Shown: positions 7,136 to 63,128, numbered from the stretch's first letter. The stretch is 64,000 nucleotides of DNA from an uncultured Clostridium sp. (GCA_945877035.1 CAMCQH010000005.1:124-64123), one strand, 5' to 3'. The notes: a model not told the origin generated them from the sequence alone. Numbers and translations are program-made.

Positions 7136-7378
7136 TTACATACTCATATTAATTCCTTTTGATACAACATCTTTCATATTTTCTATTAAATCATCAATTT
7201 CTTTTGGAGTTACAATTAAATTATAATCCTTTGGAATCAAAACTTCTCTAATTTCTTCGTAATTATTTTCCTCTTTTAATTTATTTAAATAATCATTTGA
7301 ATTTGCCTCTTCTTGTAATTTTGTTATAAACAAATCTAAACAGTCATTTACAAGCACTGCTGTTTCTACAACTGTTGG
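7136..7378 (-). pseudogene. gpr: Germination protease gpr, 3-prime fragment (C-terminal ~76 codons) separated from the rest by the ICE
   Basis: Minus-sense reading through the 14-bp core gives PTVVETAVLVNDCLDLFITKL...LIVTPKEIDDLIENMKDVVSKGINMSM. It matches the GPR C-terminus (B. subtilis ...LMVTPKEVD..IEDMANVI..GLN). No start codon or RBS of its own. Confidence 0.85.
7365..7378. repeat. att core, left copy (TCTACAACTGTTGG)
   Basis: Identical to 62401-62414. Contains the palindrome CAAC-T-GTTG. Lies inside gpr codons PTVV. Confidence 0.9.
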
Positions 7379-7384
7379 AATAAG

Positions 7385-7394
7385 TTCTTGTAAC
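7385..7394. repeat. Element-side recombinase arm (TTCTTGTAAC), 6 bp from the core
   Basis: Perfect inverted repeat of GTTACAAGAA at 62385-62394, which also lies 6 bp from its core copy. Together they reconstruct a symmetric attP. Confidence 0.7.
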
Positions 7395-7449
7395 TCAAAG
7401 GTTGGTGTAAGTTTTTGTAACTCTATATGGTAAAAAATTAAATATATAT

Positions 7450-9036
7450 TTACTTTAGCTTTTCAAAAGCCTTTATTCTGTAATATATATCTACCTTTTT
7501 ATCTTCGTGAATTTCAATCCTATCTATAATTTTTGACATTATTTCTTTGGTAGGATTTTCTAATTTCAAGAAATCATTTATTAATTCTTTGTAATCAAAT
7601 GAAAACATTTCTTTTTCTTCTTTTGTAAATTCTCCCAATTTTTCTTCAAGAGATTTTATCTCATCTTTTATCTTTTTTAAACCTTCATTCTGCTTTTCGG
7701 ACATTGATTTAAACATTTCCACTGTAATAATGTCATTTAGTCTATCTTCATATAGTCTTTCTAGGTTTTTTTCAATTTTTATTTTTTTATCGTTTGCTTC
7801 TTTTAAAGTTTTTTCAAGAGTTGCTTTATAATTGTTGTTTTCAACCTTTTGCTTTAATGCTTGTTCTATCTTTTCATCATCCATACAAATTTTGCATAAT
7901 TCTCTTACCTTTTCAACTACCATTAATTCTAGTGCTTCATAATTTAAAGTATGTGGTGTGCATAGTTTTCTTTTCGTATATGCTCTGTATAAATTACATC
8001 CAGTATATGAAAAATTTCTTGCTTTGCTACTTGCAATTCCAATACTACCACCACAATCTGCACATTTTAGCAATCCTGTTAGTAGATACGTCTTTTTTAC
8101 TGTTTTCTTTGCACTTGTATCTAATAATCTCTGTACAGTATAAAAAGTATCTTCATCAATTAAAGGTTCATGTGCATTTTCTATTACAATCCATTGTTCT
8201 TTTGGCAGTTTTACTCTTTGCCTATTTTTATAGCTTATGGTTTGGCTCTTTCCTTGTTCCAGCTTTCCTATATAAACATTATTTCTTAATATTCTTCTTA
8301 TACTGGCAGGATGCCAATATCCATATTGATAAGATAGAGCATTAGTTTGATATTTATTTCTCATCGCTGGAGTTGGGATATGTTCATCTGTAAATATATT
8401 TGCTATTTGTGTTGTACCATATCCATCAATTATCATTTTAAACATTCTTCTTACTAATGGTGCTGTTTCATTATCTATAATTAAATGATGTTTATCATTT
8501 GGATCTTTTTTATATCCTATTGGAGCAGATGTACTTACAAATTGTCCATCTTCTTTTTTTTGTTGAAATACTATCCTAATTTTTTTAGAAATATCTTTCG
8601 CATACATTTCATTTAATATAGATCTAAAAGGTGCTATATCATTTTCTGATGAATTCGTCCTTTCTGTATCTATATTATCAAGTATAGACACATATCTAAC
8701 TCTTTTCATTGGAAAATATTGTTCAACATAGTAACCACTTTGAATATAATCTCTACCCAATCTTGATAAATCTTTAGTAACAACCATATTGATTTTTCCA
8801 TCTTCAATGTCATTAATTAATCTATTGAATGCTGGTCTATCAAATGTAGTTCCTGAAACACCATCATCTACATATTCTCCAGCTAAAGCAAGTTTATTTT
8901 CTTTTAAATATGTCAATAAAATGTTTCTTTGATTTGTGATACTTTCACTTTCAATTACTTTGTCATTGTCCTCTTTTGATAATCTTATATAAATACCAAC
9001 TCTATATAAAGCATTTCTAGTTAAGCCCTCAAACAT
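7450..9036 (-). CDS. Large serine recombinase (resolvase/invertase N-domain, recombinase domain, zinc ribbon, coiled coil)
   Basis: 528 aa. RVGIYIRLSKED..SITNQR..YVDDGVSGTTFDRPAFNRLI..VVTKDLSRLGRDY catalytic domain. LLKCADCGG zinc ribbon. C-terminal coiled coil. Adjacent to the att site. Confidence 0.95.
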   Translation of the reverse strand: MFEGLTRNALYRVGIYIRLSKEDNDKVIESESITNQRNILLTYLKENKLALAGEYVDDGVSGTTFDRPAFNRLINDIEDGKINMVVTKDLSRLGRDYIQSGYYVEQYFPMKRVRYVSILDNIDTERTNSSENDIAPFRSILNEMYAKDISKKIRIVFQQKKEDGQFVSTSAPIGYKKDPNDKHHLIIDNETAPLVRRMFKMIIDGYGTTQIANIFTDEHIPTPAMRNKYQTNALSYQYGYWHPASIRRILRNNVYIGKLEQGKSQTISYKNRQRVKLPKEQWIVIENAHEPLIDEDTFYTVQRLLDTSAKKTVKKTYLLTGLLKCADCGGSIGIASSKARNFSYTGCNLYRAYTKRKLCTPHTLNYEALELMVVEKVRELCKICMDDEKIEQALKQKVENNNYKATLEKTLKEANDKKIKIEKNLERLYEDRLNDIITVEMFKSMSEKQNEGLKKIKDEIKSLEEKLGEFTKEEKEMFSFDYKELINDFLKLENPTKEIMSKIIDRIEIHEDKKVDIYYRIKAFEKLK

Positions 9037-9074
9037 ATCTTTCCTCCTTAGAGGGCTAGAAATCTTACAAAAAT

Positions 9075-9103
9075 ATTATACCATATTTATTGAAAAAATC
9101 CAA
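9075..9103 (-). promoter_or_regulatory. Near-consensus sigmaA promoter upstream of the recombinase gene
   Basis: Minus-sense TTGGAT (9098-9103), 17 bp, TGg-TATAAT (9075-9080, extended -10), about 35 nt before the AAGGAGG RBS and ATG at 9036. Confidence 0.55.
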
Positions 9104-9178
9104 CCCATTTAAAAAAGCTATTAGAAAAATTTTTAAGATTAATTTCTTTTTTCTTATAACTTTTTCCAATAACTATTG

Positions 9179-61147: not shown

Positions 61148-61984
61148 TTAAATTTCCTCTCCTTCTTCATCTTCTTCAGACGATGTATTTTCAATATTTT
61201 CATTTTTTGGCACAAAAAAAGAAGGACCTCTGCCCTTTAATAATTGTCCTTTTAAACTTTTATAATAATAATTAGGAAAACTTTGAATTTCTTTATCTGT
61301 ATTTTTATATTCTTGTTCTCTTAATTTACATTCATCATACAAACTTATTATTTGCTCTCTATTCATTTTATATAATAAATATCCTACATTTTCTTTAATT
61401 GCTAAAGCTAATGAATATGATATAATTTTTATTTTTTCAATATTAGCTGGTTGCATATATTTTATTACTTCTTGTGTATATAGCATTTCATACTTTTCTA
61501 GTACATCTATTATTTGTATTTCTAAGTTTTCAAATTCTGTTGGAATTTTCTTCTCTTTATTTATAATAAAATTAAATAAACTATCTATCATATTATTATT
61601 TATAATATTATCTTTGCTCTTTTTGCGTATAGGGTATGTACTATTTTGCACATAGGGGTATTGATTATTTTGCGTATAGGGAGTATCTAGTATAAAAATC
61701 CTTCTTTCTATGATTTCTTTATTTTCATTTCTTATTAATTCTACATTTATATAATTTAATTCTGCTAAATGTGATATCCATCTAGATATTGTACTTATGC
61801 TAACATTATATAAATCAGCAAAATACTTGTTTTTAGCAAAGCAATATCCTTTTGCATTACTTAAAGCTGTTATTTCCCCATATAATAATCTTTCTGCAAA
61901 TTTTAGTTCTCTATTGTATCGTACTCCTGCTGGAATTATTGCATAATAATTCACTTGTATATCTTCATTCATATTCTGCATCAC
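61148..61984 (-). CDS. HTH protein, putative replication-initiation / DnaD-like element protein, acidic C-terminus
   Basis: 278 aa. YYAIIPAGVRYNRELKFAERLLYGEITALSNAKGYCFAKNKYFADLYNVSISTISRWISHLAELNYI is the pattern of phage/ICE Rep N-terminal wHTH proteins. Ends EEDEEGEEI. Confidence 0.45.
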   Translation of the reverse strand: MMQNMNEDIQVNYYAIIPAGVRYNRELKFAERLLYGEITALSNAKGYCFAKNKYFADLYNVSISTISRWISHLAELNYINVELIRNENKEIIERRIFILDTPYTQNNQYPYVQNSTYPIRKKSKDNIINNNMIDSLFNFIINKEKKIPTEFENLEIQIIDVLEKYEMLYTQEVIKYMQPANIEKIKIISYSLALAIKENVGYLLYKMNREQIISLYDECKLREQEYKNTDKEIQSFPNYYYKSLKGQLLKGRGPSFFVPKNENIENTSSEEDEEGEEI

Positions 61985-62139
61985 CTCTTTTTCTTATATT
62001 TGTGTGTATATATAGAAATAGTGAAACAGTAGATACAACAAATAATTCCACTAATATTTTAATTTTCAGCATAATATCACCTCTTTTTAGTTCAAAAAAA
62101 GAGAACTAAATTTTTTCAATTTAATTCTCAAAGTTGGTA

Positions 62140-62337
62140 TTATATATTTTTTATAACATTTTTTATTTTTTCTATTGGGATGAAAACTCTCCTTTTTAAA
62201 GTATCTGTATCTATTATTGCTAATTTTTCGTTTTCTCCCATTATGTATATAGTCATTTCATTACAATTAGACTTATTTTGTAATATTTTTTTTATAATTT
62301 CCGAATCTTTTATCACGACTTTTTTCATCTTATACAC
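62140..62337 (-). CDS. Hypothetical small protein (65 aa) at the right end of the element
   Basis: First gene inside attR. No motif recognised. A directionality-factor role is only a positional guess. Confidence 0.4.
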   Translation of the reverse strand: MYKMKKVVIKDSEIIKKILQNKSNCNEMTIYIMGENEKLAIIDTDTLKRRVFIPIEKIKNVIKNI

Positions 62338-62384
62338 CTACTCTCAAAAGGTTTGTAAGGTTTCTAGCCCTATGAATTTTTAGC

Positions 62385-62394
62385 GTTACAAGAA
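62385..62394. repeat. Element-side recombinase arm (GTTACAAGAA), 6 bp from the core
   Basis: Reverse complement of 7385-7394. Symmetric position relative to the core. Confidence 0.7.
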
Positions 62395-62400
62395 AAAATA

Positions 62401-62414
62401 TCTACAACTGTTGG
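62401..62414. repeat. att core, right copy (TCTACAACTGTTGG)
   Basis: Identical to 7365-7378. Confidence 0.9.
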
Positions 62415-63128
62415 TATTCCTATTGCTATAACTGGTATTCCTAATGTTACTTGACTAATTTCAGCTCTTGTATTTCCAACCCCAGCTCCTGGTACTATTC
62501 CTGTATCTGAAAGTTGAACTGTACTACTTATTCTTTCTATACTCCTTGATGCCAATGCATCTATTACAATTACAAGTTTTGGATTTATATTATCAACAAT
62601 TCCCTTTAAAATTTCCAATGTTTCAATTCCTGTTGTGCCTAAAACCCCAGGTGAAATCGCACTTACCATTCTTGTTCCTTCTTCTACATATTGTGGTAAG
62701 TAATTTATTATATGTCTTGTTACTTCTATTTCATTTATTACTTTTGGTCCTAGGCTATCAGGTGTTACATATATGTTTCCAAGCCCTACCACTAGTATTT
62801 CTCCTTGTTTATCAATATGTGTATCTATTAATTTTTTTAATTCCTTAGACAAGGTTTCTGCTGATTTTTCTATATCCTCATCTTGTGCTATTTTTAATTT
62901 TTGTATATCTATTGTAATATAATTGCCGATAGGTTTTCCTATTGCTTTTTCCCCTTCTTCATTTGTAATTTTTACTCTCTCGACTGATATGTTTTCATTT
63001 ATTTCTTCTTTTTCACTTTCAATTCCTTGTATTTCATTTTCTATGCTGTTCGCTTTTATATATATGTCTCTTCTTTCTGATGCTAGATCTGTTCTGAAAT
63101 TAAATGCTTTTTTTTCGTTATTTATCAT
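62401..63128 (-). pseudogene. gpr: Germination protease gpr, 5-prime fragment (N-terminal ~242 codons); reads into the element for 10 junk codons (stop at 62370)
   Basis: Start at M18 (AGGAG RBS). MINNEKKAFNFRTDLASER...VVGLGNIYVTPDSLGPKV...PGVLGTTGIET...VIDALASRSIERISSTVQLSDTGIVPGAGVGN...GIPVIAIGIPTVV is colinear with GPR. After the core the frame gives DIFSCNAKNS-stop. Confidence 0.9.

Follow-up and report, generated by a model that had tools for sequence, protein, structure and literature searches.

Mobile elements that split sporulation genes are textbook cases of programmed DNA rearrangement. The described targets of such intervening elements are all mother-cell genes (sigK, spoVFB, spoVR, spsM, gerE and kamA), one paper in the field places 'almost all' of the elements in mother-cell genes, and the accepted logic of their persistence is, in part, that excision takes place only in the dying mother cell while the spore retains the element. 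This report concerns a stretch of 64,000 nucleotides from an uncultured Clostridium sp. (GCA_945877035.1, CAMCQH010000005.1:124-64123; the whole of this stretch is referred to as the window), in which gpr, the gene of the spore germination protease GPR, is interrupted by a 55-kb element of the integrative and conjugative element (ICE) type. Expression of gpr is confined to the forespore and sigmaF-dependent in C. difficile, and in B. subtilis gpr is under the control of sigmaF and sigmaG. An initial annotation of the window had set this forespore gene against the mother-cell targets of the known elements, and the literature agrees with it on both points: the field papers give only mother-cell targets, and the expression studies in C. 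difficile and B. subtilis make gpr a forespore gene. An element family that occurs recurrently in a forespore-only gene does not fit the mother-cell logic and is a clean natural test of it. In the literature on gpr or germination protease with intervening elements, ICEs, serine recombinases or prophages, no published account of an element inserted in gpr was found.

The split gpr gene is rebuilt exactly by in-silico excision

By translation of the window, gpr lies on the minus strand in two parts, a 5' part at 63128-62401 and a 3' part at 7378-7136 (Table 1). In the minus-strand translation of 62370-63179, the 5' open reading frame (ORF) opens at 63128 and codes for GPR residues 1-243, which end ...GIPVIAIGIPTVV, and then continues past the junction with 10 element-encoded residues (DIFSCNAKNS) to a stop at 62370. 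The 3' piece opens at 7378 with PTVVETAVLVNDCLD and runs to a stop at 7136, and the translation of 7136-7402 reads ...IPTVVETAVLVNDCLD.... The longest string common to both junctions is the 14-mer CCAACAGTTGTAGA (62401-62414 and 7365-7378), and no other copy of it is present in the window.

When the halves were fused at a single copy of this core, an in-frame ORF of 318 codons (318 aa) was obtained. The rebuilt ORF matched the GPR equivalog model TIGR01441 with 368.6 bits (cutoff, 120) over model positions 1-304 of 306, the Pfam family Peptidase_A25, and the solved Bacillus megaterium spore protease (PDB 1c8b, E = 4.6e-72). A 14-bp repeat is weak evidence when taken alone, as the window contains 582 distinct repeated 14-mers; the split exceeds chance because a full-length conserved gene is rebuilt exactly and in frame. 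There was no GPR paralogue in the 64-kb window, and an exact look-up of the truncated 252-aa gpr product returned no record. The proposal of the initial annotation, that gpr is split by a 55-kb element whose excision would restore it exactly, is confirmed by the 55,022-bp length of the element, by the rebuilt ORF and by an uninterrupted allele in 99%-identical strains, which is described below.

Empty alleles, many hosts and a circular junction

Intact gpr orthologues, with up to 94-95% protein identity, were found in well over 100 metagenome-assembled genomes (MAGs) of related gut Clostridia, and the window after in-silico excision of the element is collinear with the intact-gpr MAGs. Contigs encoding the exact YtxC protein of the window were found in both states, empty and occupied. 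Three conspecific contigs (L184, L186 and L188) cross the empty site and are 99.0-99.8% identical to the excised window. Contig L184, which supplies the intact allele that the initial annotation had proposed to look for in related strains, encodes a 318-aa GPR with four substitutions and matches the predicted attB without a difference across the 134 bp that were compared. The occupied attR junction was found at 100% identity in a contig from another sample, assembled from an independent run (L185). Because same-species contigs occur both empty and occupied, the insertion is recent and polymorphic within a single species, and the allele predicted from excision exists in nature.

A second intact copy of gpr, which according to the initial annotation would speak against its reading, was sought in the element-bearing sister MAG CAMMVE01 and was not found; this MAG has only the two fragments. 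An intact gpr gene accompanying a junction in the MAG CALXZT01 was rejected as a second copy, since the pair consists of the genes of two species (73% nucleotide identity) and reflects a binning effect.

The exact integrase protein sequence of the window appears in 107 index blocks of the collection. Among the junctions retrieved, integrases 93-100% identical to that of the window abut gpr 3' fragments in nine distinct host alleles, and the far end of the element abuts the gpr 5' fragments of 12 distinct alleles, with 63-84% protein identity to that of the window. The element family thus occupies gpr in at least 12 host lineages. The protein-identical integrase adjoins gpr alleles that are only 64-100% identical in protein. 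Judged from these sequence comparisons, the element is spread horizontally among hosts.

The attL and attR junctions recur in >20 independent assemblies, and in two contigs, L163 and L181, each of an independent assembly, the core links the integrase end with the far end, just as predicted for the circular attP. Typical assembly k-mers are longer than 14 bp, and the circular junction should need real reads because the shared core is shorter than these k-mers. Eight MAG or metagenome contigs (L172, L173, L176, L177, L179, L180, L182 and L183) break off at attL, 27-70 bp into the element; such ends are expected if the element has several contexts per sample, either different hosts or integrated and circular forms.

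In one contig, L169, the junction sits in an unrelated gene for a hydrophobic or membrane protein reading ...ACAGTAGTAGG, and this is probably a secondary integration site. Its position in an unrelated gene with ACAGTAGTAGG argues that targeting follows DNA sequence and not gene function. At L169:4637-5267 the element end is joined to the non-gpr sequence as CCAACAGT/AGTAGGTGCTATC....

Strand exchange and the recombinase

At attL, the host bases vary up to core position 6, with CCTACA, CCGACT or CCAATG before GTTGTAGA, and at attR they vary from core position 9, where CCAACAGT is followed by A, C or T. Because host variation at the two junctions brackets the GT at core positions 7-8, this dinucleotide is the exchanged overlap. 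It forms the first two bases of Val codon 241, in the GIPTVV motif. The 14-bp core of the initial annotation therefore stands as an identical copy present at both junctions, but not as the exchanged segment, which is GT only. That the junctions of the window agree over 14 bp is due to attP mimicking the attB of this host.

The attP site is an imperfect palindrome of 22+2+22 bp about the GT, with arms GTTACAAGAA...TTCTTGTAAC and 19 of 30 positions symmetric. This geometry fits the rule for large serine recombinases, namely a 2-bp central dinucleotide within sites of ~40-50 bp that form an imperfect inverted repeat. The integrase has YIRLS at its N-terminus and contains the domains Resolvase (PF00239, 77.9 bits), Recombinase (PF07508, 96.1 bits) and Zn_ribbon_recom (PF13408, 40.3 bits). 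The nearest characterised recombinases are TnpX, whose catalytic domain (2mhc) was the best PDB match, SprA of SPbeta (9dxh) and TndX of Tn5397, the last being 36.9% identical to the integrase across 97% of the protein. TndX and TnpX are reported to be sufficient for both excision and integration in the titles of references 3 and 4 of PMC3783163. Unregulated low-level excision would be plausible by analogy, because these closest characterised recombinases need no directionality factor. With attP, attB and the GT crossover known and varied right half-sites tolerated, the recombinase is a candidate for a new tool.

Probable loss of GPR as a tolerated consequence of integration

Through the insertion GPR loses its last 75 residues (codons 244-318) and gains 10 unrelated ones. 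The lost C-terminal block, LIVTPKEIDDLIENM..GIN, is conserved from the B. megaterium GPR to this protein, and carriers most likely make no working germination protease. A motif of the type GAATA-N17-AATACTA lies upstream of gpr in the window and in 28 of 81 upstream regions by the strict pattern, and related variants in many more; it is a consensus match only, to the sigmaG/F consensus of B. subtilis.

The initial annotation had left two outcomes, inactivation of GPR or excision in the germ line. That dichotomy is sound as far as it goes, but it left out a third option, which is excision in the predivisional cell. The reading that we consider probable, with moderate confidence, is a gpr knock-out that is tolerated in carriers, with excision serving mainly the transfer of the element and free of developmental control. 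An active 55-kb integrative element of the conjugative type would use its single large serine recombinase to join the palindromic attP to attB inside gpr, with strand exchange at the GT of Val codon 241. Integration would truncate GPR and leave carriers without a working germination protease, and they would tolerate the loss because the role of GPR is limited to speeding the breakdown of small acid-soluble spore proteins at spore outgrowth, the protease being unneeded for growth or sporulation. Excision, which is precise and real, would serve chiefly the element's own transfer, the recombinase probably acting at low frequency as TndX and TnpX do, and cells that lose the element would regain an intact gpr. 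If carriers pay a germination cost, there is a measurable trade-off in gut Clostridia between carriage of the element and spore-based transmission.

Several observations weigh against a tolerated knock-out by a transferable element without developmental control. The gpr fragments differ from the empty allele by eight synonymous and four non-synonymous differences and have no stops, so that no decay is seen; at ~1% divergence the number of differences is too small for this comparison to be informative. The idea that attB was picked as the most conserved stretch of gpr was rejected, as the 44-nt attB window ranks 596 of 914 in a codon-aware alignment of 103 orthologues, with a mean conservation of 0.84 against 0.826 overall, and only the left half-site is well conserved. 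A coupling protein (VirD4/FtsK-like) was not found by a Walker A motif search or by family scans of the large ORFs, and VirB4 was the sole Walker-A protein within the transfer region; for this reason the element is called ICE-like and not a proven ICE. The remaining observations hint at a tie to sporulation, and these are the Spo0A-like regulator with its conserved 0A-box-like repeats, the sigmaG/F-like motif ahead of the 53-aa ORF and the integrase, and a sister element (L213-L217, about positions 1100-1570 in each) that abuts the 3' part of a CotJC-type Mn-catalase gene.

Alternative explanations

The hints of a sporulation tie bear on an alternative that we regard as unlikely, namely that excision is coupled to sporulation and occurs in the germ line. 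Under the control of Spo0A~P or sigmaF/G, the element would leave gpr in the predivisional sporangium or the forespore, whereupon gpr would be rebuilt in the chromosome destined for the spore and the GPR zymogen made; the circle, trapped in a non-dividing forespore, would re-integrate at outgrowth or be lost from some spores. The argument for it starts from gpr itself, which is forespore-specific, so that any rescue must occur in the germ line. If true, the DNA rearrangement would belong to a kind that has not been described so far and would be the first developmental one in the forespore line, made by an ICE with the spore as its vehicle.

The Spo0A-like regulator matches Pfam Spo0A_C with 30.2 bits (cutoff, 25) and is kept in variants of the element. 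That it is Spo0A itself was ruled out (TIGR02875, 29 bits vs a cutoff of 200). The 0A-box-like array lies ~140-150 bp upstream of the regulator gene with a 10-bp spacing and is kept in variants whose Spo0A-like protein is only ~70% identical, and the 0A-box hexamer has just four copies in the 64-kb window. Both the regulator and its upstream array were also seen in L083, L181 and L213-L217. This conservation suggests cross-talk between the element and the host sporulation master regulator, by which a mobile element would be wired to, or interfere with, the master switch of sporulation. The ParB-like protein is on the same side of the argument. However, the Spo0A-like module is common to sister elements that integrate at other targets, and so is not gpr-specific: a very widespread sister family carries the same radical SAM/LysR/Spo0A-like module together with two serine recombinases (507 and 519 aa). 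Because this family sits in a CotJC-type gene, the lineage seems to favour spore-related genes, which would agree with excision in the germ line. In L217, a 5' fragment of the CotJC-type gene lies between the recombinase end and the other element end, in an orientation that is unexplained.

The relaxed sigmaG/F-like motif at 9378-9406 resembles the one ahead of gpr and precedes the unit of the 53-aa ORF and integrase. Two such matches in the element lie ≤120 nt ahead of an ORF, and of these the motif at 9378-9406 alone is intergenic. The diverged variants L082 and L083 keep it as GTATA-N17-AATAATA. It is a lead only, because the count of such motifs in the element (5) is not above that in shuffles (7.6), in a sequence of 75% A+T. 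The counts of sigmaE, F, G and K patterns in the element were at or below the shuffle expectation, with only one sigmaG-like match suggestively placed; the single sigmaE-like and two sigmaK-like consensus matches in the element scan were in no case ≤120 nt upstream of an ORF start. Circular junctions are present in real samples, as excision during sporulation would require, but any active ICE is expected to form circles. Also against germ-line excision, the integrase has its own housekeeping-type promoter, its nearest relatives dispense with a directionality factor, and there is no known precedent.

A stricter form of this idea, slightly less probable again, is a programmed and reversible germ-line excision. 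Its trigger would be either Spo0A~P, acting on the 0A-box array, or sigmaF/G, acting on the motif ahead of the 53-aa ORF and integrase, and a spore-borne circle, perhaps ParB-aided, would be inserted into gpr again at outgrowth.

It is equally doubtful that the insertion is without consequence, the shortened protein, with its 243 native and 10 added residues, being active enough as a protease, or GPR being redundant or a relic in these hosts, so that there is nothing to rescue. The 5' fragment does align with the B. megaterium GPR around TPDSLGP and IDALAS, regions which we take to hold the two catalytic aspartates of GPR, and gpr mutants of Bacillus are viable. In contrast, the missing block is conserved between Bacillus and these Clostridia and lies inside the equivalog model, and the adjacent ytxC gene is intact. 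More than 100 related species-level genomes retain GPR at 80-95% identity, in many cases with a sigmaG/F-like motif ahead of the gene, and this retention argues for purifying selection and a real function of GPR.

An assembly artefact, in which the junctions would be chimeric joins of element and host contigs, is compatible with the window taken alone and with the several MAG contigs that break 27-70 bp from the junction, but it is dismissed on account of the exact attR junction of the independent run, the recurrence of both junctions across assemblies, and a shared core shorter than the usual assembly k-mers.

Gene content of the element and its flanks

The interrupting DNA is of the conjugative type, as the initial annotation had proposed, and it encodes a relaxase, a VirB4 protein, an M23 hydrolase and an adhesin (Table 1). 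A prophage identity was ruled out, as phage structural genes are absent and the relaxase, VirB4 and adhesin genes are present. The relaxase scored 122 bits against the NCBIfam model MobP3, under its cutoff of 150, and VirB4 scored 383 bits against the ICE VirB4 equivalog model, under its cutoff of 590. The element also encodes polyvalent-protein domains, belonging to the transfer module, and DNA methylases. Its cargo comprises an ABC/FtsX transporter with a two-component system, a Y-family polymerase, a transglycosylase and a viperin-like radical SAM enzyme. For the last of these (12867-14093, minus strand), the best NCBIfam match was prokaryotic viperin with 107.8 bits, under the cutoff of 180, and the gene may be anti-phage cargo.

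At the integrase end, the promoter ahead of the integrase gene is kept in element variants and does not satisfy the scan tool's stricter requirement for a -35 box. Candidates for a directionality factor are limited to the 53-aa ORF and the DUF6075 protein. No family match was obtained for the 53-aa ORF in family scans, and it is a candidate accessory or directionality factor. That these two are the usual partners of related recombinases was rejected, as they are missing from 76 distant recombinase loci. In the variant with a 93% identical integrase (L082, L083 and L181), DUF6075 matches as two adjacent pieces of 36 aa and 95 aa, which suggests a frameshift, and DUF6075 may be dispensable for recombination. 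The divergent control region (11655-12104) contains a tandem direct repeat of AATGTGGACAAAAAAAGA in two copies (11889-11926, plus strand), of which L181 and L213, both element variants, have one. A regulator may bind at this repeat.

The host flanks carry hrcA, grpE, a GH57 branching enzyme gene and the sporulation gene ytxC. Beside grpE, the gene at 1144-1497 (minus strand) encodes a protein of the 23S rRNA intervening-sequence or bAvd-like family. Between the convergent gpr and ytxC genes, positions 7020-7135 form a long imperfect palindrome of short repeats (GGTCAGA/GATATCTGACATC...), part of which (7041-7076) was scored as a terminator by the scan tool.

Table 1. Features of the split gpr gene and of the interrupting element (positions in the window)
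Feature	Position	Strand	Remarks
gpr 3' fragment	7136..7364	-	Codon 244 to stop; holds conserved C-terminal LIVTPKEIDDLIENM...GIN block
attR core CCAACAGTTGTAGA	7365..7378	-	Junction comparison
Interrupting element, 55,022 bp	7379..62400	-	Nearly all genes on minus strand
attP arm, integrase side, GTTACAAGAACTTATT	7379..7394	-	Imperfect palindrome centred on GT
Large serine recombinase (integrase), 528 aa	7450..9036	-	71 bp from attR
Probable sigmaA-type extended -10 integrase promoter, TTGGAT-17-TATAAT	9075..9103	-	TGG before -10; sequence reading
53-aa ORF	9179..9340	-	Just upstream of integrase; kept in all gpr-targeting variants
Relaxed sigmaG/F-like motif GAATA-N17-AATAATA	9378..9406	-	38 nt upstream of 53-aa ORF
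DUF6075 protein, 162 aa	9458..9946	-	Belongs to integrase-end module
Regulators: sigma-70 region-4-like (144 aa), HTH_16 (55 aa), HTH (143 aa)	10375..11654	-	Resemble Tn916 orf7/orf8
Tandem 0A-box-like repeats TTCGACAAAAATCGACA (TTCGACA)	11963..11979	+	Divergent control region
Spo0A-like regulator, 243 aa	12105..12836	+	Degenerate receiver and Spo0A_C DNA-binding domain
Surface adhesin, 1082 aa	28797..32045	-	Thioester domain and SpaA repeats
M23 peptidase, transfer-apparatus cell-wall hydrolase	42441..43151	-	
VirB4-type conjugation ATPase	43152..44975	-	P-loop_TraG and AAA_10; Walker A motif
Relaxase	51753..53435	-	Pfam MobL 35.4 bits, over cutoff 28.5
ParB-like protein	54505..55614	-	
attP arm, far end, TATTTTTTCTTGTAAC	62385..62400	-	Imperfect palindrome centred on GT
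attL core CCAACAGTTGTAGA	62401..62414	-	Crossover GT = core positions 7-8
gpr 5' fragment	62415..63128	-	Codons 1-238; codons 239-243 within core
sigmaG/F-like motif GAATA-N17-AATACTA	63149..63177	-	Regular-expression match; 49 nt before gpr ATG

Comparison with known systems

The gpr element resembles skin (sigK), SPbeta (spsM), phi3T (kamA), vfbin (spoVFB), vrin (spoVR) and gin (gerE) in carrying a large serine recombinase, in sitting within the coding sequence of a spore gene, in a target that is dispensable for growth, and in a site-specific excision that restores the ORF exactly. It differs from these elements in that their targets are mother-cell genes, with excision confined to the terminal mother cell, whereas gpr is forespore-specific, and in that they are prophages or prophage remnants whereas the gpr element is ICE-like. 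A model for excision in the germ line is the Listeria prophage phi10403S in comK, which shows 'active lysogeny', in which the prophage leaves comK precisely, so that the germ line has the gene restored, and later re-integrates; it differs from the gpr element in being a prophage and in the type of host signal.

The closest characterised recombinases are those of Tn5397 (TndX) and Tn4451/Tn4453 (TnpX), which are clostridial elements, conjugative or mobilisable, with circular forms and with insertion sites in coding sequences. The gpr element is much larger (55 kb) than these three, and its central dinucleotide is GT, compared to GA for TndX and TnpX. It also differs from Tn5397 and Tn4451 in the target gene and in the transfer module, which has a MobP3/MobL relaxase and a VirB4 like that of Mycoplasma ICEs. 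A further likeness is in its regulators, which resemble the orf7/orf8-type regulators of Tn916. Homologues of spo0A with the Spo0A DNA-binding domain are carried by gut phages (mBio 2023, PMC10294663). These phage proteins are without a receiver domain, whereas the protein of the gpr element keeps a degenerate one and has its own 0A-box array upstream.

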